Shown: piece after piece, positions 12,214-58,317 of the stretch
Layout: each line of letters opens with the position of its first letter
How positions within the stretch are numbered: the first letter of the stretch is position 1
IMG/VR virus record: IMGVR_UViG_3300045988_087270
Coordinates: 1 to 64,000 of that record
Strand: one strand, 5' to 3'
Source of the DNA: a virus
DNA: 64,000 bases
The notes under the pieces: generated by a model
What the model was told of the DNA's origin: nothing
What the model saw: the letters and a program-made list of their open reading frames with translations, nothing else
The model's database searches: none
Position numbers and translations under genes: made by a program

Positions 12214-12294
12214 GTCTAGATAGCCAAGTGGTCAACGGCAGCAAGCTGTTAACTTGCCCCGAAAGGTTCCTAGGTTCGAATCCTAGTCTAGGCG
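12214..12294 (+). tRNA. type-II tRNA (Ser-like body, G73) with anticodon loop cuGUUaa
   Basis: Acceptor gtctaga/tctaggc, T-arm ctagg-ttcgaat-cctag, 3-bp D-stem with 11-nt D-loop, 12-nt variable arm, anticodon stem gcaag/cttgc; positions 34-36 read GUU. Confidence 0.55.
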
Positions 12295-12302
12295 CAATGA
12301 TA

Positions 12303-12365
12303 TATGCCTCTTATTTCTAAGGTTCATTACCTTCTCGAAAAGAAATGTGTACACAAGAGGCGCCT
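12303..12365 (+). other. structured RNA-like element (7-bp closing stem gcctctt/aagaggc, internal hairpins)
   Basis: Nested stems atttct/agaaat, aagg-ttcatta-cctt (T-arm-like) and palindrome gtgtacac, immediately 5' of the next tRNA. Confidence 0.3.
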
Positions 12366-12442
12366 GGAGTATTAAGCCCTGTTGGTAAGGGAACTAGACT
12401 GTCACTCTAGTAAAACTAAGGGTTCGAGTCCCTTATATTCCG
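12366..12442 (+). tRNA. tRNA-Asp(GUC), non-canonical D-arm
   Basis: Acceptor ggagtat/atattcc (one G-U), anticodon stem ctaga/tctag with loop cuGUCac, T-arm aaggg-ttcgagt-ccctt; the D-stem pairs only ccc/ggg. Confidence 0.5.
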
Positions 12443-12587
12443 CAAATAATGGAGAGCACCTAGCGTTTAACTGGGTAGTTGTTAGAGGTAGCGGTGGCAA
12501 TCCACGAGTATGCCTGATAGCTCAATATATTATTAGAATATGGTCACGATAGTTTGCCCGTCTAATGCCATATTTGCCTTTATTTAA

Positions 12588-12659
12588 GCTTCAATAGCAC
12601 AGTGGTAGTGCAGCATTCTTGTAAAATGCAGGTCGTAGGTTCAAATCCTACTTGAAGCT
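12588..12659 (+). tRNA. tRNA-Thr(UGU)
   Basis: Canonical cloverleaf: acceptor gcttcaa/ttgaagc, D-stem gcac/gtgc, anticodon stem gcatt/aatgc with loop cuUGUaa, T-arm gtagg-ttcaaat-cctac. Confidence 0.8.
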
Positions 12660-12668
12660 CTCTAATAT

Positions 12669-12740
12669 CGTGGGTTGTAGCAGTGGTAGCTTGTTTGTCT
12701 CATAAGCAAACGGTCATCGGTTCGAGTCCGATACCCACAA
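12669..12740 (+). tRNA. tRNA-Met or Ile2 (CAU)
   Basis: Acceptor cgtgggt/acccaca (1:72 C-A mismatch), anticodon loop cuCAUaa, T-arm atcgg-ttcgagt-ccgat. Confidence 0.65.
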
Positions 12741-12746
12741 CAAAAT

Positions 12747-12830
12747 TGTCTAGTATGTGAAGTGGTCAAACATGACTGACTGTAAATCAGCTGCTATTTA
12801 GCTTCGGGAGTTCGAATCTCTCCTAGACAA
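12747..12830 (+). tRNA. tRNA-Tyr(GUA), type II
   Basis: Acceptor tgtctag/ctagaca, anticodon loop cuGUAaa, long variable arm gctatttagc, T-arm gggag-ttcgaat-ctctc. Confidence 0.7.
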
Positions 12831-36751: not shown

Positions 36752-37526
36752 ATTTACTTTAGAAGAAGTATTAGAAGGAAAAGCTACTAGTATTAAAGGT
36801 AAAGATTATCTTCCTACTAGGGGATATATTGAGCCTTTCTTAGAAAGAGTTCAAAAATTAACTTCTGATATTAGAGTACATGTAAAATTACCTGATCAAA
36901 TCACTTATAATAAAAATGGTGATATAGATACTGCTGATTTAACTTTTAATAGAGTATGGTTGGAAGCAGTATTACCAAACGAATATCAATATGCTAATCA
37001 TCAGCAAGTAATTGGTATGGTATATGGTCTAGATACTAGAAAAGCTGTTGTAAAAATGTATTCAGGTGCTTTAAATTCTGCATGTACGAACCTTTGTGTG
37101 TTTAATCCAGATAGTTTAGTAGTTAATGAAATAGAACCAGAGACTCCTATTGACTTTAAACCAATTATAAGACTTGTAGAGCAAACCACAGAGATAGGAG
37201 TTACTCTCAGACGTTTTGCAGAAACAGATTTTGACTATACCAATAAAAGTTTTGTAAACGAACATTTGGGTAGATGGATTCGTAACTGTATGTCTGAATC
37301 TGTTGATAATGGTTTTGGTAAAGTAAAATTAGCTACATCAACTCCTATTGATGCTTATAAATTATTATTTGATAAAAAAGATAGCCCATATCTTATATCA
37401 GATGATAACGCAAATATGTTTACTGTATACAATGCATTCACTCAAATTATAACTGATTCTATGAAAAAGGATATTATGAATCAGGTTGAGAAAACTTTAT
37501 TAGTAAACAGCATTTTAACTTTGTAA
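36732..37526 (+). CDS. hypothetical protein
   Basis: 264 aa. Confidence 0.5.
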   Translation: MERMPTEFTLEEVLEGKATSIKGKDYLPTRGYIEPFLERVQKLTSDIRVHVKLPDQITYNKNGDIDTADLTFNRVWLEAVLPNEYQYANHQQVIGMVYGLDTRKAVVKMYSGALNSACTNLCVFNPDSLVVNEIEPETPIDFKPIIRLVEQTTEIGVTLRRFAETDFDYTNKSFVNEHLGRWIRNCMSESVDNGFGKVKLATSTPIDAYKLLFDKKDSPYLISDDNANMFTVYNAFTQIITDSMKKDIMNQVEKTLLVNSILTL

Positions 37527-37623
37527 ATAATATTTTGAAATAACTATATAAGCACTATATTATTAGTTCAGTACTAGTATTATAGTGCTTATTTCGTAGA
37601 TGATTTAAAATGTTAATTTATAA

Positions 37624-39363
37624 ATGTTATTTATGGTAATAAAGAGAGACGGAAGTAAAGAAGAGTTTAACAGAAACAAAATTAGAGATGCTGTATTAAA
37701 AGCTTTTGGAGTTACCCAAAATTCTAATAAGACAATGGACGAAGATATTTACAGAGCAGTTACTGAAATAACTAATTCTGTAGTAGAGACTGAAGATCAA
37801 TCTATTGAAGATATTCAAGACCAAATTGAAGAACTTTTAATGGATTTAGGATATCACGACGTAGCTAAAAAATATATTCTATATCGTAAAGAACGTGAAG
37901 ATATTAGGAATCATGCTACTAGAGATATTGAATTTATTCATAATTTTGTAAAATCTGATAATACTGCTAATGCTACTATTGACGACAATAGTAATGTAGG
38001 AACTAAAGGTATTGGAGTATTAAACGCTGAAATACATAAAGTCGATAATAAACTTACTAATACAGAATGGTGGGAAAGTTTTGTAAAGAAGAGAGACCCT
38101 AACTTTAATATAAAAGTTATGAGGAATGATTTTAAAACTATTTTATATCCTCATGATTCATCTTCTCAAGTAGGAGAACCATATTGTATGGCAGCTTCTA
38201 TGTATCCTTTCTTGTTGTCTGGATTAGAGAAATTAGGAGGTAAATCAGCAGTTCCAAAGAACCTTGATTCACTCTGTGGTATTTATGTAAATCTAAACTT
38301 TGCATTAGCTTCTGAAATTAAAGGAGCAGTAGCTACTCCTGAGTTTCTGATGTATATGGATTATTTCTGTAGAAAAGAATGGGGAAATAATTATTATCTT
38401 AAACCAAGTGTAAGAATAACTACAGATTACTGTATAAAACAGAAAACTATTGGTAGTCAAATTGATCAATATTTCCAACAAGTAACTTATTCTATTAATC
38501 AAATAGCTGGAGCTAGAGGAATGCAGTCTCCATTTACAAATTTTTCATTCTTCGATAAATATTTCTTTGAAGGTATGTTTGGAGAATTTGTATTTCCAGA
38601 TGGAACAAAGCCAGAATGGAATTCTACTAATTGGTTACAAAGACGTTATTTACATTGGTTAAACCAAGAAAGATTAAAATGTATTTTAACATACCCTGTA
38701 TGTAGCTATGCTTGCTTAACAGATAAGGAAGGTAATTTTAAAGATTTAGATACTTTCCATTTTATATGCAATGAATATGCTCAAGGAAATTCTTTCTTTA
38801 CTTATTTATCTCGTAGCGTAGATAGTTTAAGTTCATGTTGTCGTTTACAGAATGCAGTACAGGAAAATACATTTAATACTACTAATGGTCAAATAGGTGT
38901 AATGACTGGTAGTAAGAATGTCATCACTCTTAATTTAAATAGAATTATTCAGGATTGGCAGCATACTTGGTCTGATTATAAAGACCATATTGATGTTAAT
39001 ACCAATAGATGCTGTTTCCCAGTAGATTGGATTACACATAAAGATTTCCAAGAAGGAATTAAGAAATATATAGAAAATATTCTTGAAAGAGTTTATTTGT
39101 ATCAATATGCTTATAACGACTTAATGCATTGGTGCAAAGACCATCATTTATATGCTGCTTATGATGCTGGTTTTATTAATCTTGATAAGCAGTATTTAAC
39201 TATTGGAATTAATGGCTTAAATCAGGCTGCTGAATACTTAGGAATGGAATGTAATAATAATATTTATTATAAGACATTCTGTAGATTAATATTCAGTACC
39301 ATAAAAGAGCAGAATAAGAAACATAAAACTAAAACAGCTCAATTTAATACTGAACAAGTGCCT
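37624..39363 (+). CDS. nrdD: anaerobic ribonucleoside-triphosphate reductase NrdD, exon 1
   Basis: N-terminal ATP-cone (VIKRDGSKEEFNRNKIRDAVLKAF); large class III RNR body; ends ...FNTEQVP. The ORF continues only 10 codons into the intron before a stop. Confidence 0.7.
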
Positions 39364-40625
39364 AGACGTGTGGGCACTATAAATCTCTTTTAATTGACTC
39401 GAAACTCCTTAAATTAAGGACAACGAGGGGCAAGCAATAATTATTATAATTATGGGCAGCCTGAGAGACTAAATAAAGAGAATTTTAAATAAATTTATTT
39501 AAAGTATATAATAGTCCGAACTCTATGGTAACATAGAGAGAGAAAATCGAAGAATTTTCTCCGTTAATAATATAATATACAAAATAATTTTGATTCCCGA
39601 GGATGAGGGTCTATAATTGTTCTATAACAGTAAATATAAAAATTATAGTTTATGGAACAAAAATTAGACATTTTAAAAGTAAGAAATTTAGTAAAAGAAA
39701 AAAGAGTAAGAAAAAGAATACCAGATGAATGTACCTGTGAAGTATGCGGAAGTACTAAAGGAGAAGGGAAACTTAGAAGATTCAATGATTATATAGTTTG
39801 TGAAAAACACTATGACCAATTAAATAAATATGGTAAAATCACCGATACTTCTAAAAGAAAACACAAAAAGCCTTTAGAAAAATGTAGTATTTGTGGAGGT
39901 TTAAAAATGGCTTCTTTTGAAGGAACCCCATATTGTCGTAAACATTATATCCAAATAACTAGGCATGGGGTTATTAGAGATAGAACTATCTATGATGCTA
40001 ACGAATATGTTATTCATGAAGATTATGTAGAAGTAAAATGTTTTGATAAAAATGGTAATTATAAAGCTAGCACCAAAGTTGACTTAGAATTTTTACCTGA
40101 TATTAAAAAACATAAAATCTATATAAGAAAAAGTGGTATTAAAGAATATGCAGCATTTTCAGGAATAGAAAATGAAGAAGGTTCTGGTAAAAAATACTTT
40201 GTACATAGATATATAATGCATCTTCACGATAAAAAATATAATATTGATGAAGTAGTAGACCATATCAATGGGGATTCTTTAGATAATAGGATTTCAAATC
40301 TTAGAGTTTGTACTCAAAAAGAAAATTCTTATAATAACAGAGGAACAAAATTAAATCAAAAAATTAAAGGAGTAAACTGGCTTAAAGTAAATAAAAAATG
40401 GACGGCTAGAATAATGTACAATTATAAAAGTATACATCTTGGAAATTATTTTACTTATGCTGAAGCTGTATTAGCTAGAATAAAAAAAGAACAAGAATTA
40501 TTTGGTGAATATGGTCCTAACAAAGATTTATATTATATTATTAATCATCCTTCGCCAATAGAGGAATTAAATAAAATATTAGAAATTCCTTCTATAGAAG
40601 GAGCGTAACAGAATGGCAGAAAGCG
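39364..40625 (+). mobile_element. group I intron 1 of nrdD with HNH-AP2 endonuclease ORF
   Basis: P1: exon gtgcct pairs with IGS gggcac at 39373-39378. R-like gagagacta, S-like aagtatataatagtccgaac, P9 hairpin ctatggtaacatagag. Ends ...gtaacagaatG. Splicing gives FNTEQVP|AESASVKLY. Confidence 0.7.
39652..40608 (+). CDS. HNH-AP2 homing endonuclease (intron-encoded)
   Basis: HNH_3 motif VDHINGDSLDNRISNLRVCTQKEN, AP2-like KGVNWLKVNKKWTARI...; paralog of 42035-42805. Confidence 0.65.
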   Translation: MEQKLDILKVRNLVKEKRVRKRIPDECTCEVCGSTKGEGKLRRFNDYIVCEKHYDQLNKYGKITDTSKRKHKKPLEKCSICGGLKMASFEGTPYCRKHYIQITRHGVIRDRTIYDANEYVIHEDYVEVKCFDKNGNYKASTKVDLEFLPDIKKHKIYIRKSGIKEYAAFSGIENEEGSGKKYFVHRYIMHLHDKKYNIDEVVDHINGDSLDNRISNLRVCTQKENSYNNRGTKLNQKIKGVNWLKVNKKWTARIMYNYKSIHLGNYFTYAEAVLARIKKEQELFGEYGPNKDLYYIINHPSPIEELNKILEIPSIEGA

Positions 40626-40674
40626 CTTCAGTAAAACTTTATAATAGAGATAAGAAGGATGGGTAGACTCAATG
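40626..40674 (+). CDS. nrdD: NrdD exon 2 (49-nt mini-exon, AESASVKLYNRDKKDG)
   Basis: Matches the conserved class III RNR segment AES.S..(F/L)...DK; flanked by intron ends ...cagaatG and 5' exon-end U with IGS gcccat at 40684-40689. Confidence 0.6.
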
Positions 40675-41406
40675 CCCATGTAAAACTCTTACTGATTGAC
40701 TTGGAAGTCCGGTGTGGCGACAGGGCGCAAGCTGTAGCATTTTATATGTTACTTGCAGCGTGAACGACTGAGTGTAAGAGACTTATAAGGATAATATGTG
40801 AATATTGCTACTTATAGGTATGCGACAGTCTGAACTATACAAAGTATAGAGAGAATTCGAAGAAATTCTCCATTTATTTAGTGGGACAATTTTTTATTTT
40901 GACCCAGGGATAAAAATGGTTATATTAGTACCAGATAATAAAATATTAATTTAAACTAATTTTAATTGTATGGATACTAAAATTTGTAGCAAATGTGGAA
41001 GAGAACTTCCACTAGACCGTTTTGAATCTGGAAGAAATCAATGTAGAGATTGTCGTAATGCTAGACGCAGAAAATTAAGACAGGAGCATCCTGAAAAACA
41101 TAGATAGGAAGCTTCTAAAAGGCAAGAAGAGCAAACTAAATGGTTATATTCTCTAAAAAAGAAATGTTTAATATGTGGTGAAACTGAACCAGTATGTTTG
41201 GATTTTCATCATAAAGATCCTAATGAAAAAGATTTTACTATAGGTAAACATAGAAATAAAAGTAAAGAGAATTTAATGAAAGAGATAGAAAAATGTGTTT
41301 GTGTTTGCGCTAATTGTCATAGAAAAATTCATGCTGGTATTATTAATCTAGAAGATTACCTGAATAAATCATTTCCTCAAAGCCCAGAGGAAAGCGTAAC
41401 AGAATG
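40675..41406 (+). mobile_element. group I intron 2 of nrdD with HNH endonuclease ORF
   Basis: P1: exon atgggt pairs with gcccat. R-like gtgaacgactgag, S-like gcgacagtctgaac, P9-like hairpin ctatacaaagtatag. The 3' end gcgtaacagaatG is identical to intron 1. Confidence 0.65.
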
Positions 41407-41407
41407 A
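40970..41407 (+). CDS. HNH endonuclease with in-frame TAG at 41105-41107
   Basis: CSKCGRELPLDRF...CRDC zinc ribbon, then TAG, then CLICGE...CANCHRKIH HNH motif in the same frame. The terminal TGA uses the first nucleotide of exon 3. Confidence 0.55.
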
Positions 41408-41745
41408 CTGGGTTCCTACAGACACTAATCTGTATGCTAGTTATATATTTAAACCTAATGATACACATATAAGTATACTTGATAAAATTATACTTCATAG
41501 TTCTGAGTTCGCTGCTGATGAATTAGATGGAGGTTCTGCTTGTCATCTTAATTTATCTGAACATTTGAGTCAGAAACAATATGAGTATTTACTTAAATTT
41601 ATGGCTAAAGTAGGTTGTAAATATGCTACTTTTAATATTCCTAATTGTGAATGTGAAGAGTGCCATTTTATAGCAAAACAGCCGTTTAGTAAATGTCCTA
41701 AATGTGGCAGTACTCATGTAAGTCTATGGGATAGAATTATTGGGT
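41407..41745 (+). CDS. nrdD: NrdD exon 3 (Zn ribbon plus start of glycyl-radical motif, ends ...WDRIIG)
   Basis: YWVPTDTNLYASYIFKPND...CECEECHF...CPKCGSTHV..RIIG matches the NrdD C-terminus (T4-like CPKCGST...RITGY). Confidence 0.65.
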
Positions 41746-42809
41746 GAACGTAAACGCCCCACATAATAGTAATATTATGTAGTAAACGCAGAATATGCTG
41801 GAAACCCCTTAGAGCCTAAGTATACTTGAAATATTTTCAAGGATGAACAAGTCTTAGGATTGGGCAATCAGCAGACATATAAATTGTTAATTTATGTTAA
41901 AGTGTTAAGATTTATACAAGTCTTGTATATACTTAACATATATAAAATTTATGGGTCTCAGAGACTACCAATGCGCAACCTATGGGTTGATAGTATAGTC
42001 CACTCCCTTATTATTAACATAATTATTTAACAATATGAGAAAAATAACAGAAGAACGCTTTTGTGAAGTATGTGGAGTATCATCAAAATTTAAAAAAGTT
42101 AGTTTTAATAAACTTTCTGGAAAAATACTATGTGAAAAACATATGGGACAATTTAGAAGATTTGGGGAATTTAAAGATACTAATTCAAGAGGAGTATTTG
42201 ATGATAATGAAATTAGATTAAAAGATAATTTTGCGGAAATAGATACTTATGATTCTCATGGAAATATTATGGAGACATTTATTCTAGATATAGATGATGT
42301 TCCAAAATTAAAGGGTCATAAATGGAGAACTGTTTATAAAAATAATAAACCTTATTTATTTACAGGAAACCAGAAAAAAGAACGTATCTATTTTCATAGA
42401 TTGGTACTTCCTACTGATAAACAAGTTGACCATATTAGTGGAGATACTCATGATAATAGAAAATGTAATCTTAGAGAAGTAACTATCCAAGAAAATATGT
42501 TAAACCTACAAAAGAAATCTAATAATACTTCGGGTATTCGGGGGGTATCTTTTGATAAAAAACGAAATAGATGGAAAACTGATTTTACTTTTCAAAAACA
42601 ACGTTATTATTTAATGGATAGGAACCTAAAAGAAGAAGCCGTTTATCAAAGGTATCTTTGTGAGAAATTAGTATTAAAAAATTTTCGGAATGAAGCTAAT
42701 GATGCTCTGTATAATTCTTATATTGATAAAATTTCAGAGGAACGTAAAGCTGAAATAAAAAAGTATGTTATTAATAAATTAAATATCTCGAAAGAGAGGG
42801 TATAAAAGG
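41746..42809 (+). mobile_element. group I intron 3 of nrdD with HNH-AP2 endonuclease ORF
   Basis: R ctcagagactacc and S gatagtatagtcc boxes at ~41960-42000; intron ends in G. Splicing restores RIIG|YLTKISNWSAARQLE, the glycyl-radical consensus. Confidence 0.65.
42035..42805 (+). CDS. HNH-AP2 homing endonuclease (intron-encoded)
   Basis: VDHISGDTHDNRKCNLREVTIQENM HNH motif, GIRGVSFDKKRNRWKT AP2-like; paralog of 39652-40608. Confidence 0.65.
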   Translation: MRKITEERFCEVCGVSSKFKKVSFNKLSGKILCEKHMGQFRRFGEFKDTNSRGVFDDNEIRLKDNFAEIDTYDSHGNIMETFILDIDDVPKLKGHKWRTVYKNNKPYLFTGNQKKERIYFHRLVLPTDKQVDHISGDTHDNRKCNLREVTIQENMLNLQKKSNNTSGIRGVSFDKKRNRWKTDFTFQKQRYYLMDRNLKEEAVYQRYLCEKLVLKNFRNEANDALYNSYIDKISEERKAEIKKYVINKLNISKERV

Positions 42810-42910
42810 ATTTAACAAAGATTTCTAATTGGAGTGCTGCTAGACAACTAGAAGGTAGTACTAGAAGTAGAAAGAATAAATTAGAAATTAATATAGAATT
42901 AGCACAATGA
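42810..42910 (+). CDS. nrdD: NrdD exon 4 (C-terminal glycyl-radical tail)
   Basis: (G)YLTKISNWSAARQLEGSTRSRKNK...; the stop overlaps the thioredoxin start. Confidence 0.6.
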
Positions 42911-43170
42911 AAAAAATATTAAAATTTGAAGCAGAATGGTGTGGACAATGTAAAGCTTTAGCACCTATTTTAAAAAGAGTATTAGAAAATCATACTGATA
43001 TTACTTTAACTACAGTAGACATAGAAATTGAAGAGGAAACTACTCTTAGATATAATATTAGAAATCTTCCAACTCTTGTGTTTATAAAAGATGATATAGA
43101 AGTAGGAAGAACTTCTGGAGTTTTAACTACTGATATGCTTGAGAACAAAATTAAAGAGTTCTATGCTTAA
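42907..43170 (+). CDS. thioredoxin/glutaredoxin-like redoxin
   Basis: WCGQC active site; sits between nrdD and nrdG. Confidence 0.65.
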   Translation: MKKILKFEAEWCGQCKALAPILKRVLENHTDITLTTVDIEIEEETTLRYNIRNLPTLVFIKDDIEVGRTSGVLTTDMLENKIKEFYA

Positions 43171-43639
43171 ATATGTTGATACAGCTGTTACTTTTGCAGA
43201 ATTTCCTAATGAAGTTTCTCTGTGTATTAACATCAGTGGTTGCCCTTGTTGCTGCGATGGCTGCCACTCACCTTATTTGTCAAAAGATATTGGAGAAGTA
43301 CTATCATTGGAACGACTTCAAGAATTAATTGAATCTAATAAAGGAATTACATTAGTAGGATTTATGGGAGGGGATTCTGACCCAAAAGAAATAAATAAAT
43401 TAGCTAAATGGGTTAGAGAAAATTACCCTGAATTACATATCGGATGGTATAGTGGTAAACAATTACTAGCTGATAATGATATAGATATTGATAATTTTGA
43501 TTATATTAAACTTGGTCCTTATATGAAACAATTTGGACCATTAAATAATCCAAATACTAATCAAAAATTTTATAAGATAGATAGAAATGCCCATATAATG
43601 ATATGGTGTACTGATATATTTTGGAAGGAGGCTGAATAA
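43139..43639 (+). CDS. nrdG: anaerobic RNR activating protein NrdG (radical SAM)
   Basis: NISGCPCCCDGCHSP cysteine cluster; adjacent to nrdD. The real start may be the ATG at 43163. Confidence 0.6.
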   Translation: MRTKLKSSMLKYVDTAVTFAEFPNEVSLCINISGCPCCCDGCHSPYLSKDIGEVLSLERLQELIESNKGITLVGFMGGDSDPKEINKLAKWVRENYPELHIGWYSGKQLLADNDIDIDNFDYIKLGPYMKQFGPLNNPNTNQKFYKIDRNAHIMIWCTDIFWKEAE

Positions 43640-55293: not shown

Positions 55294-56711
55294 ATGATTT
55301 ATTTAGTTACCAAAGCTAAAACTTTATTTAAATCTTCTAAATATGAATGTATTTCCATAGAGAAAAGTAAAGAAATTATTAATTCTATGGGAAAAATTAG
55401 AGGGTTAGATACTGAAACTAGGGGATTAAATCCTCATACTAAAGCATTATTAACTGTTCAGATAGGTACTAAAGAAAATCAAGTAGTAATTGATTGTACT
55501 ACTATAAATATTTTGGAATATAAAAATATATTAGAAGATTCCGATATTTTATACATCTTAGCTAATGCTAAATTTGATACCCAATTCTTCTTTAAACATA
55601 ATATTATATTATCTAAAGTATGGGATGTAATGTTAGCTGAAAAAGTTAGATATTTGGGATATCCTAAAGGTAGTTTTCATGCTGACTTACAGACCCTTGA
55701 ATATAAGTATCTTAATAAACATATGGATAAAACTGTTAGGGGTAAAATTACTAAAGTTGGTCTAATTGAAGAAGTAATAGTTTATGCAGCTAATGATGTA
55801 GTAGATTTGGAAGATTTAATGAATGCTCAAATAAAAGCTTTAGAAAAAGAAGATTTGGTAAAGGCAGTACAATTAGAGAATAGATTTGTTATTCCATTGG
55901 CTTATATGGAATGGTGCGGAGTAAAATTAAACGTAGAAAAATGGAAAGCTAAAATGGTAAAAGATGCTAAACGTTTAAAAATTGCTCTAAATAAATTAAA
56001 TGATTGGGTAATAGAACATTATGGAAATGACTCTAGATTTACTAAGGTAGATTTACAAGGAGATTTATTTTCAGGATTTAATACTGACCCACAGTGTACT
56101 ATAAATTGGAATAGTGGAACTCAAGTAATTCCATTATTTAAAGCTATTGGAATAAATACTTCTACTATAGATAGTAAAACAAAGAAATTAAAAGATTCTG
56201 TAGATGCTAAATTATTAAAGCCTCAAGCTAAGGATTTTGAAATTCTTCCTATTTATCTAGATTATAAGGAAGCTCAAAAAGTATGTTCTACTTATGGACA
56301 AAACTGGTTAGACCAAATAAATCCAGAAACTGGTAGAGTATATACTAAGTTTAATCAGTTAGGTACTAATACTGCTAGAATATCTAGTGGCGGAAAAGAT
56401 AAAAATGCTAAAATAGAATATGTAAATTTTCTCAATCTTCCAGCAGACCCAGAAACTAGAAGTTGTTTTATTGCAGAGAAAGGTAATTCTTGGATTTCAA
56501 TAGACTACTCAGGGCAAGAAAGTTTCATTATGGCTTCTATTTCTAATGATAAAGCTTTAATACATGAATTAATGGAGGGAAGTGGGGATTTACACTCTCT
56601 AACTGCTTATATGAGTTATCCTGATCAAATACCAAGAGATACAAAAATAACAGAAATTAAAGAAAAATATCACCATCTTAGACAAGAAGCTAAAGGCATA
56701 GAATTTGCCAT
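55294..56711 (+). CDS. family A DNA polymerase, exon 1
   Basis: 3'-5' exo motifs (LDTETRGL, YAANDV), pol motif A IDYSGQESF, DLHSLTA, motif B start RQEAKGIEFAI; the ORF stops 2 codons into the intron. Confidence 0.7.
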
Positions 56712-56983
56712 TAATCCTTAAATTATTACAATTTTGTGGCACTCTATGGAAACATAGAGAATAAAAAATTGGGTGAATTGCAGGAACTTAAGGAAAATCT
56801 GCAGCCAAGCCAACCTTTAACAAAGTTGGAAGGTTCAACGACTAACTCTTGAAACTTCGTAAGAAGAATATAATAGAGACACGAGCGCCCAACACCTAAA
56901 CTATAAAGTAAGGTGATGAAATAGTCTAGCCTATATGGTAACATATAGAGCCTTGGATAAAGAGCCAAGGGTTAATACACGCG
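56712..56983 (+). mobile_element. ORF-less group I intron (td/IA2-like) in polA
   Basis: P1: exon gccat pairs with IGS gtggc at 56736-56740. P gaattgcagg, Q aatctgcagccaag, R gttcaacgactaac, S aaatagtctagcc, P9 hairpin ctatatggtaacatatag. Ends in G. Splicing gives AKGIEFAI|NYGGDF. Confidence 0.75.
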
Positions 56984-57452
56984 AAATTATGGTGGTGATT
57001 TTAATACTATTCACCGAAACAAAGGCATCTCTATAGAGGAAGCTAAAAAGATATATGAAAATTATATGTCAGGTTTCTCAGGATTAGCTAAATATCAAGA
57101 ATATTGTAGGAAAATAGTCATGGAAAAAGGCTATATACTTCTAAATCCTATAAGCAAATATAGAGCACATATATATGATTTTGAGTCTCTACGTTCAATG
57201 CAAGAAAAAATGCAAGATAGAGAATTTTGGAAGTATTATAGAGAAATGAAACGAGAATCTCCTAATTGTGATACAGTACAAGAAGTACGAGATTTCTTTA
57301 AGAAAAAAGGTGAGTGTGAAAGGAATAGTATAAATTATAGAATACAGCATACTGGAGCTTTATGTTATAAAGTAAGTATGATTTATTTCTTTAGATGGAT
57401 AGTAGAAAATAATCTTTTTAATAAGGTTTTAATTACTATTACCCCCTACGAT
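56984..57452 (+). CDS. family A DNA polymerase, exon 2
   Basis: Completes motif B (NYGG...EEAKKIYENYMSGFSGLAKY) and continues to ...KVLITITPYD. Confidence 0.65.
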
Positions 57453-58317
57453 AAATAATCTTGTCGTAGTAAAACGATGTTAATTGCTTGGAACTCCTAA
57501 AGATTTAATTACTAAATTATTGAAATAATAAACCAGTAAAAATATTAAATATGATTTTACCTCAGTTAAAAGAAATGGACAATAAGCAGCTTTATAATTT
57601 TACAAGAGAACAAACTCAAGTATTTCTAACAGGACTGCTAGGTGATGGATGTATATCTACTACAAATAGTGGTAGTTATATTTATACTACAAATTGTAAG
57701 CATCTTGAATATTTAGAATTTAAAAAGAAATTATTAGGTAAAGGAAATATTAGACTCCAAGAAAGAAATGGCTATAGTCAAACTCCTATATATACTATGT
57801 ATGGGGGAGCTTACCCAGAATTATTTGAGTTTAAAGAATTTACTGTTCAAGATGTTATTGAAAACTTAGATTTACTTGGGTTAGCATTATGGTTTTACGA
57901 TGATGGTAGCCTTCATAAAAGAGATTTACATTATAATTTAAATACTCAAAAGTTCCCAAAGTATATACAAGAAGGAATTTTTATTCCATGGTTTGATTCC
58001 TTAGGCATTAAAGCTAATTTAAGACATGATACAAAAAGAGGAAAAGAATTGTATTATTTAGGAATTAATAAATATGAAGGAGCTAATATTATTAGTGAAA
58101 TACTATCACGTTATCCATTAGATTGTTACTCTTATAAATTATGGAGTTCAGAGACTATCCTGAAATGGAGTAAGCTGCAAGAGCAGGTGAAAAGCATCGA
58201 TGAAAATCTTACTAATAGGCAATTAGCTTATAAGTGGAGGTTTTTATAAGATATAGTCCGAACCTATATGAAAGTATAGGAGAATATATGGAATCGATAT
58301 ATTCGTAACAATATATG
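57453..58317 (+). mobile_element. group I intron in polA with LAGLIDADG ORF
   Basis: P1: exon acgat pairs with IGS gtcgt at 57464-57468. 3' S box aagatatagtccgaacc and P9 hairpin cctatatgaaagtatagg (GAAA loop). Ends ...tatatG. Splicing gives ...TPYD|EINCEAP.... Confidence 0.65.
57551..58249 (+). CDS. LAGLIDADG homing endonuclease (intron-encoded)
   Basis: LTGLLGDGCIS and LALWFYDDGSL dodecapeptide motifs. Confidence 0.7.
   Translation: MILPQLKEMDNKQLYNFTREQTQVFLTGLLGDGCISTTNSGSYIYTTNCKHLEYLEFKKKLLGKGNIRLQERNGYSQTPIYTMYGGAYPELFEFKEFTVQDVIENLDLLGLALWFYDDGSLHKRDLHYNLNTQKFPKYIQEGIFIPWFDSLGIKANLRHDTKRGKELYYLGINKYEGANIISEILSRYPLDCYSYKLWSSETILKWSKLQEQVKSIDENLTNRQLAYKWRFL

Follow-up and report, generated by a model that had tools for sequence, protein, structure and literature searches.

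Two insertions in the nrdD gene of a virus end in the same sequence and leave only 49 nt between them. This raises the question of whether the short segment is a genuine exon, and whether one insertion is a copy of its neighbour or both arrived separately. We analysed a 64,000-nt stretch of DNA (positions 1 to 64,000 of the IMG/VR virus record IMGVR_UViG_3300045988_087270; hereafter the window) and conclude with considerable confidence that its nrdD contains a true 49-nt exon between paralogous group I introns, each of which was separately acquired at a recurrent insertion site.

Exon-intron layout of nrdD in the window

The large subunit of class III ribonucleotide reductase, NrdD, is encoded at 37624-42910 on the plus strand, to which its exons and introns belong. 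According to the sequence and the list of open reading frames (ORFs), the gene consists of four coding pieces with three insertions between them, and each insertion contains one ORF. Joining 37624-39363, 40616-40664, 41407-41745 and 42810-42910 resulted in a 742-aa protein without stops, which matches NrdD of Thermotoga maritima (PDB 4coi; residues 100-725, E=2.7e-52); the matched region takes in EQVPAE, the cysteines of the zinc ribbon and RI(V/I)GYL, the glycyl-radical motif.

Exon 1 (37624-39363; codons 1-580, ending in ...EQVP) was assigned from the ORF listing and the 4coi match and is unbroken in the related loci L002-L006, L008 and L009. It is followed by intron 1 (39364-40615; 1252 nt) at site 1 (VP|AES), the ends of which are set by intron-less alleles, and by the mini-exon (40616-40664), which encodes NrdD residues 581-596 and the first base of codon 597. 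Intron 2 (40665-41406; 742 nt) occupies site 2 (DG|Y, codon 597 phase 1), and exon 3 (41407-41745) supplies the remainder of codon 597 and runs up to base 1 of codon 710 (...WDRIIG). Intron 3 (41746-42809; 1064 nt), located directly before the Tyr codon of RIIG|YL, carries an HNH_3/AP2 ORF (42035-42805), and its core is unrelated to the cores of introns 1 and 2. The gene ends with exon 4 (42810-42910; YLTKISNWSAARQLEG...AQ) and its stop codon TGA at 42908-42910. An nrdG-like activase ORF (43139-43639), intact as judged from its translation, lies downstream. At some distance from nrdD, the window also contains a cluster of five tRNA genes (12214-12830, plus strand).

The 49-nt segment is a conserved part of NrdD

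The mini-exon reads GCAGAAAGCGCTTCAGTAAAACTTTATAATAGAGATAAGAAGGATGGGT, which corresponds to 16 codons (AESASVKLYNRDKKDG) and a single further nt that begins a Tyr codon. A preliminary description of this DNA had already noticed 16 codons and 1 nt between two introns, and both our reading of the sequence and the intron-less alleles confirmed this. While the mini-exon and its two flanking introns thus exist, the coordinates given for it (40626-40674) have to be corrected, as they are shifted by +10 nt: that interval drops the first 10 exon bases and takes in the first 10 bases of intron 2. The position given for the core of intron 1 (39364-39651) was right, but intron 2 starts at 40665 and not at 40675.

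The peptide aligns with EQVPAEKAAVTLAQKD of Thermotoga NrdD (PDB 4coi), which bears out the suggestion that it is a conserved NrdD segment, and none of the NrdD homologs examined, which range down to about 50% overall identity, lacks it. As the peptide is kept in all recovered homologs, we regard the segment as coding sequence that is indispensable.

Alleles with and without the introns

To survey related genes, IMG/VR was scanned with the C-terminal 215 aa of NrdD, which yielded 38 loci (cited by their L numbers), and insertions were mapped by tblastn. A phage contig from human faeces in GenBank (MT835492) is 96.6% identical across the gene but without introns 1 and 2, and reads straight through both sites as ...GAACAAGTACCC|GCAGAAAGC...GATGGTT|ATTGGATTCC.... 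Including MT835492 and 13 IMG/VR contigs, 14 close relatives have an uninterrupted mini-exon region, in which the 49 nt are contiguous with both neighbouring exons; five more alleles have only intron 1 of the two, and here the mini-exon is contiguous with exon 3. The segment is therefore exonic, as the preliminary description had assumed. Because these close relatives, with 96-99% NrdD identity, are either intron-less or contain intron 1 alone, both splice junctions are base-exact.

The close relatives (96-99% aa identity) differ in their set of insertions. No insertion was found in L002-L006, L008, L009 and L011, an insertion near codons 400-406 (site A) alone in L007 and L010, site A together with intron 3 in L001 and together with intron 1 in L014, introns 1 and 3 in L028, L029, L031 and L032, and intron 3 alone in L012, L013 and L035. 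Intron 1 includes its ORF in L028 and is present as ORF-deleted derivatives of about 305-355 nt in L014, L029, L031 and L032. Insertions at site 3 are either short (about 290 nt, an ORF-less size) or long (about 1 kb) in L001, L012, L013, L028-L032 and L035. Intron 2 was absent from all 19 close relatives. Within one population, nrdD alleles thus include none, A, 1, 3, A+1, A+3, 1+3 and, in the window, 1+2+3. Dated by this population series, intron 2 is a newcomer, and we infer that intron 1 circulates in the phage population of the window.

Two further observations were made on these loci. Site A adjoins the SSCCRLQ active-site cysteine region and is empty in the window; close as well as distant relatives carry an insertion of about 1 kb there, which was located at 2742-3797 in L001 and at 4579-5598 in L014 and was also found in L007, L010, L017-L019, L030 and L039. 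Moreover, the NrdD genes of two phage contigs of about 167 kb (L025 and L026; IMGVR_UViG_3300045988_163797 and _174569) show an in-frame TGA at positions where homologs have Trp (YN*DK, GY*IP), which suggests that these phages may read TGA as Trp.

One alternative is that 40616-40664 is itself intronic, either because a single composite intron (39364-41406) is removed or because the mini-exon is habitually skipped. Two similar introns with identical tails could indeed pair the 5' splice site of intron 1 with the 3' splice site of intron 2, and exon skipping has been reported for Twort orf142 and a Bastillevirinae polymerase gene. Loss of the 49 nt, however, shifts the frame and eliminates the C-terminal glycyl-radical domain, and the 16 residues, conserved in all homologs, align with the PAE segment of a solved NrdD. 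Since joining of exon 1 to exon 3 is a frameshift, a skipped product would at most be a by-product and cannot be the functional mRNA, and we find this explanation hardly credible. A twintron was rejected as well, because the 49 nt between the introns are conserved NrdD coding sequence and contiguous in intron-less alleles.

Introns 1 and 2 share a group I fold

Rfam gave no group I match (Intron_gpI, RF00028) at E≤1 over positions 37000-43500 and none at gathering score in the whole window. Since Rfam was silent, the fold was worked out by hand and then tested by covariation. A core pattern derived from introns 1 and 2 matched 38 stretches of viral contigs in IMG/VR, and 32 distinct cores, Lak-B1 included, were aligned. 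Helices P3, P4, P5, P6, P7, P8, P9 and P9.1 were 97.4% paired over 1296 cells in the 32 family members, compared to 38-48% in slid controls with the partners moved by 1-3 columns. P7 is pseudoknotted with P3, and P9 has a GNRA loop. Compensatory double changes occurred at 24 of the 41 pairs; for four of five measures none of 500 shuffles reached the observed value, and for the remaining one, further pair types, 7 of 500 did. Taken together, a group I core of P3-P8 with the P3/P7 pseudoknot was recovered and is supported by covariation.

The two introns of the window follow the same pattern, as their helices differ by compensatory changes: P3 is CUCUUU/AAAGAG in intron 1 (39384-39390 with 39475-39481) and CUCUUAC/GUAAGAG in intron 2, P4 is CUCG/CGAG and CUUG/CAGG, and P7 is GACUA/UAGUC (39467-39471 with 39512-39516) and GACUG/CAGUC, respectively, and P9.1 (39540-39561 in intron 1) behaves likewise. 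The 5' ribozyme core of intron 1 (39364-39576) further comprises P9 (39521-39538) and the 5' strand of P9.2 (39563-39576), whose 3' strand is located at 40532-40545.

The elements expected at the splice sites were found in both introns. P1 of intron 1 is formed by the last 6 nt of exon 1, GUGCCU (39358-39363), with the internal guide sequence GGGCAC (39372-39377), and P1 of intron 2 by the last 6 nt of the mini-exon, AUGGGU (40659-40664), with the guide part GCCCAU (40674-40679), in each case with a U.G pair at the 5' splice site. From site to site and among family members, the guides vary in compensatory fashion. G is the last base of both introns, the omega-G of intron 1 being position 40615 at the end of the 3' tail. 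For P10 of intron 1, a 3-bp pairing is possible between the first 3 nt of the mini-exon, GCA, and UGU of the guide. At site 2, the guide part CUCAAU (40668-40673 in the window) pairs over 6 bp with the 3' exon AUUGGG of other site-2 hosts; the 3' exon of the window is ACUGGG, which leaves five of the six P10 pairs and one mismatch.

The minimum free energy (MFE) fold of a natural ORF-less allele of intron 1 recovered P1, P3-P6, P8, P9, P9.1 and P9.2 (z=-6.3), and its 17-bp P9.2 stem closes exactly at the ORF-deletion point, which places the ORF in the P9.2 loop. P2 and P7.1/P7.2 are absent from the intron family. Subgroup IA2 (the type of T4 td, nrdB and sunY) was considered and rejected on account of the 3 nt (AAU or AGU) between P7 and P3'.

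On these sequence grounds, we assign introns 1 and 2 to one compact family of group I introns and predict that they are spliced. We read the silence of Rfam as limited model coverage and not as counter-evidence to the fold. Rfam misses a compact family with wide occurrence in viral metagenomes from the gut and elsewhere, and genes of this kind will as a consequence be mis-annotated as fragments.

A family A DNA polymerase gene in the window (55294-58300) is seemingly split by two more group I introns. The first insertion (...EFAIN / YGGDF..., roughly 56716-56990) is ORF-less and about 270 nt long, and its AUAGUCUAGCCUAUAUGGUAACAUAUAGAG resembles P7'/P9. The second starts at about 57455, where exon CUACGAU pairs with GUCGUAG, continues with GUAAAAC and UUAAUUGCUUGGAACUCC as in the nrdD intron family, and carries a LAGLIDADG ORF (57551-58249). 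Searched with an nhmmer profile of the nrdD intron family alignment, the polymerase insertions gave E-values of 1e-4 and 0.03.

Insertion sites and endonuclease genes

Site 1 (after codon 580, VP|AES; 1 nt further in L068) is occupied by an intron at 18 loci, 13 of which are divergent nrdD genes whose main pieces are about 34-53% identical in aa sequence. Site 2 (codon 597 phase 1) is occupied at eight loci besides the window (L049, L051, L053, L055, L060, L061, L071 and L075), and published Lak-B megaphages (Lak-B1) also carry an intron of the family there.

The ORF of intron 1 (39652-40608) is intact and encodes a putative homing endonuclease of 318 aa, looped out of P9.2. It matches Pfam HNH_3 (E=2.6e-10) and PHROG 99 (E=8e-36) and, weakly, the I-HmuI structure 1u3e (E=3.5e-4); presumably, it is a site-specific enzyme that drives homing. 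The ORF at site 2 is a different one, a small zinc-finger HNH gene of about 146 aa, whose intact homolog in L051 matches PHROG 2255 (E=1.4e-31). L051, L055 and L060 have an intact copy. In the window (40970-41407), an in-frame TAG at 41105-41107 results in HR*EA instead of HREEA as in L049 and L071, the site-2 ORFs of which bear other nonsense codons. Recoding of TAG was rejected, as the standard code yields a densely coding window, TAG ends 12 long ORFs and the nonsense positions of the homologs differ. In the absence of stop-codon recoding in the window, the endonuclease gene of intron 2 is most likely decaying and probably a pseudogene, and current mobility of intron 2 is doubtful. Both introns nevertheless have the characteristics of homing introns, namely ORFs with predicted endonuclease activity, intron-less cognate alleles and signs of co-conversion.

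The decayed endonuclease, like the silence of Rfam, would fit a scenario in which the insertions remain unspliced, so that nrdD is a fragmented pseudogene or gives separate polypeptides and the mini-exon is a relic; in Jug phages, splicing reads were lacking at one of the nrdD gaps (PMC12880540). Yet the four exons of the window are in frame, free of stops and 96-99% identical to intact alleles, the ribozyme helices, P1 and P10 have been kept by compensatory changes, and the downstream nrdG-like ORF appears intact in translation. We therefore consider unspliced insertions very unlikely and continue with spliced introns around a true exon.

The shared 3' tail is a family-wide element

The identical 3' ends recorded in the preliminary description are real and comprise 14 nt, AGCGTAACAGAATG, at 40602-40615 and 41393-41406. 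A 13-mer within this region, GCGTAACAGAATG, occurs only at these two places in the 64-kb window, even if one mismatch is allowed, where shuffles lead to an expectation of 0.01. Introns 1 and 2 also share their first four bases, AGAC.

The tail is not restricted to the window. Throughout the family, the introns end in (G/A)G(C/T)GTAA(C/T)AGA(A/G)T(0-1 nt)G, i.e. GYGUAAYAGARU(N)G in the RNA, the commonest form being AG(C/T)GTAACAGAATG, with the variants GTAATAGAATCG, GTAACAGAGTG and GTAACAGAATTG. It is conserved at both sites and in many unrelated phages and also ends compact ORF-less family members in other contexts. The stop codon TAA of the intron 1 ORF lies inside the tail, and the stop codon TGA of the intron 2 ORF straddles the 3' splice junction; the two ORFs pass through the tail in different reading frames (...E G A * and ...S V T E *, respectively), indicating that it is conserved as RNA. 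A covarying hairpin precedes the tail, with CCUUC/GAAGG in intron 1, UUUCCUC/GAGGAAA before the tail AGCGUAACAGAAUG of intron 2 and UCUCUUG/CAAGAGA in L049. Presumably, the tail is involved in how the terminal G is presented at the 3' splice site. A family-consistent Watson-Crick partner for GUAACAGAAUG was not found in J7/9, J6/7, J1/3, the P9.1 loop or the P1 loop.

Judged from the sequences across the family, the identical 3' ends are the conservation of a ribozyme element and not a mark of recent duplication. As to the details of the match, GCG stands in the tail of intron 2 in the window as it does in intron 1, whereas GTG is found in each of the other eight site-2 introns named above. 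The perfect 14/14 agreement is thus due to one synonymous T-to-C change in the window intron 2, which may have arisen by chance or by gene conversion from intron 1 over a very short patch.

Probable separate arrival of intron 2

From the identical 3' ends, it had been proposed that one intron is a local duplicate of the other or reached the adjacent site by retro-homing. Our data do not support this, as the tail is family-wide, the endonuclease genes are unrelated and the nearest relatives of intron 2 (87-92%) reside at DG|Y of distant nrdD genes. A comparison of the two cores, as the preliminary description had called for, indicated that they are homologous but not recent duplicates: they are 73% identical over pairwise-aligned columns and 55-60% in the family alignment. 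Intron 2 is 92% identical to the intron of L053, 91% to that of L071 and 87% to that of L049, with which it forms a clade of 100% bootstrap support, while the NrdD proteins of these loci are only 43-65% identical to that of the window. The closest relatives are thus 92% identical, and none is identical.

The exons around site 2 provide further information. At positions -11 to -8, -2 and +2, none of the 19 close relatives shares the bases of the window, and at +6 most of them deviate as well; the window reads AAGAAGGATGGGT|ACTGGG and the relatives AAAGCTGATGG(C/T)T|ATTGG(A/G). Positions -8 to -2 of the window (GGATGGG), GATGGGT and the protein sequence KKDG match donor-type exons. Such a cluster of exon changes at site 2 is the pattern expected of co-conversion during homing. 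At site 1, every allele with intron 1 has GTGCCT before the site, including the U needed for P1, and nearly all intron-less alleles end in C or A at this position.

An origin of intron 2 from intron 1, by a recent duplication within this genome or by reverse-splicing (retro-homing) into the adjacent site, could account for the common core architecture, the AGAC start and the identical 14-nt 3' end, and also for the GCG that sets the intron 2 tail of the window apart from the other eight site-2 introns. It conflicts with cores of 55-73% identity that differ in P5, P6 and P8, with unrelated endonuclease genes (PHROG 99 and PHROG 2255), with the 100% bootstrap support that groups intron 2 with site-2 introns of other phages, with the family-wide conservation of the tail and with exon changes that fit an import from a foreign nrdD. 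We consider such an origin highly improbable; a recent tandem or ectopic duplicate was rejected in view of the core identity, the different endonuclease families and the clustering with foreign site-2 introns. Separate acquisition of the two introns remains our preferred reading.

Likely exchange of cores in the history of the family

While retro-homing does not explain the origin of this locus, movement of cores between the adjacent sites does find support in the history of the family. In a simple neighbour-joining tree of about 245 gappy columns with 200 bootstraps, the site-2 cores were monophyletic in none of the 200 bootstraps. The site-2 introns of L051 and L061 group with the site-1 intron of L062 (99% support, 83% identity), and the site-2 core of L075 is 80% identical to intron 1 of the window and 62% to intron 2. 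The site-2 endonuclease ORF, in turn, is homologous in all site-2 clades translated (L049/L071, the L051 group and L075). Polyphyletic cores together with a homologous ORF imply either core exchange or a switch of site followed by gain of the resident endonuclease. In these introns, the ribozyme core and the module of endonuclease and site have separate histories.

We lean towards the view that site-1 and site-2 introns have swapped cores, through gene conversion between co-resident copies or through ectopic transposition, possibly also in double-intron alleles such as that of the window, so that the site lineages are not independent. The polyphyly of site-2 cores and the one endonuclease ORF across the translated site-2 clades speak for this; against it stand the simplicity of the tree and its gappy columns, the lack of a second double-intron locus as an intermediate, and the two cores of the window, which are clearly distinct, with homogenisation there of possibly 1 nt at most. 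A second locus with both sites occupied was not found in IMG/VR using the pattern of site-1 tail, about 49 nt and site-2 guide, and no other locus searched, Lak-B1 included, combines sites 1 and 2. The same pattern gave five matches in JGI metagenomes, which were rejected as chance since they have no NrdD homology. Searches of GenBank phages with the cores (megablast/blastn) returned only Lak-B for intron 1 and two weak partial matches for intron 2.

More tentatively, alleles with both introns might be the setting in which cores are swapped by gene conversion between copies 49 nt apart, and their near-identical tails might let the ribozymes cross-react and skip the mini-exon, with NrdD output set by folding kinetics; we regard this as a speculative possibility. 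If it held, core swaps in double-intron alleles would explain polyphyletic cores beside one conserved site-2 endonuclease.

A model for the split nrdD

Based on these findings, we propose that the pre-mRNA of this gut-phage nrdD would contain three ribozymes and four exons, and that the mini-exon would serve both as 3' exon of intron 1 and as 5' exon of intron 2. In intron 1, P1 would be formed with the 6 nt that end exon 1 and P10 with the 3 nt that open the mini-exon; in intron 2, P1 would draw on the final 6 nt of the mini-exon and P10 on the initial 6 nt of exon 3, A(U/C)UGGG. As 49 nt are long enough for non-overlapping contacts, the two ribozymes could act independently. Expression of NrdD would need correct splicing by both of them.

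Concerning the origin, intron 2 would be a separate acquisition: endonuclease-driven homing would have brought it in from a more distant phage and co-converted about 12 nt of the upstream exon, and the stop codon would have entered its endonuclease gene after acquisition. This direction of transfer is suggested by the donor-type exon sequence at site 2.

The locus offers a base-exact series of states before and after introns were gained in an essential phage gene, at two sites separated by 49 nt. It would also lend itself to studies of exon skipping and of how neighbouring, similar ribozymes interfere with each other and undergo exchange. It overturns nothing known about group I introns or homing.

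Comparison with known systems

Mobile group I introns in phage ribonucleotide reductase genes have been described before (PMC2988022), as have several introns in one phage gene (PMC3073962, PMC11878797). The closest counterpart with respect to the host gene is the T4 nrdD intron (sunY, I-TevII), which resides in the same gene family, the class III ribonucleotide reductase large subunit. Like the introns of the window, it has a core of about 235 nt followed by the endonuclease ORF and then about 20 nt before the 3' splice site, and its J8/7-P7'-J7/9-P9 segment (AUAGUCUGAACUGCAUGGUGACAUGCAG) is similar to that of the window family. In contrast, T4 nrdD has a single intron at codon 180 and the window introns lie at codons 580 and 597; the T4 intron (group IA in the T4 record) has P7.1/P7.2 typical of IA2, both of which the window family lacks; and I-TevII is a GIY-YIG enzyme, whereas the window's are HNH. 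The T4 NrdD clade is too distant for a phmmer match from the window NrdD.

With regard to the endonucleases, the HNH enzyme I-HmuI from the DNA polymerase introns of Bacillus phages SPO1/SP82 is related to the intron 1 ORF at the weak level given above (E=3.5e-4), and the intron 1 ORF has a longer, zinc-finger-rich N-terminal region.

For Twort orf142, three group I introns that resemble one another, together with exon skipping, are reported (Landthaler & Shub 1999, as cited in PMC3073962 and PMC11878797), and exon skipping is also described for a Bastillevirinae polymerase gene (PMC3073962, PMC11878797). Twort orf142 resembles the window in having related group I introns close together in one phage gene, which poses the same question as to whether ribozymes of such similarity mis-pair their splice sites and pass over the short exon between them. 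By analogy, exon skipping may be a possible cost at the nrdD of the window. The gene and the host are different, however, and the window introns bear different endonuclease genes and occur independently in the population.

Fragmented nrdD genes are known from gut megaphages. For Jug phages, group I introns and HNH endonuclease genes are reported to break up nrdD in 95 of 104 genomes, with as many as four pieces per gene, and splicing was observed in metatranscriptomes (PMC12880540). The nrdD of Prevotella phage Lak-B1 (MK250020) has at least five interruptions; site 2 is occupied by a member of the window's intron family, and site 3 is interrupted as well. In the record (L078, MK250020, 158500-165500), the gene is unannotated and consists of at least six pieces in the part compared, with some exons as short as about 25-40 codons. 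Jug and Lak are megaphages, whereas the window phage belongs to a lineage of contigs of about 95-180 kb. Particular to the window is the occupation of site 1 and site 2 together, which leaves a 49-nt exon and is an unusual combination of ordinary mobile introns.
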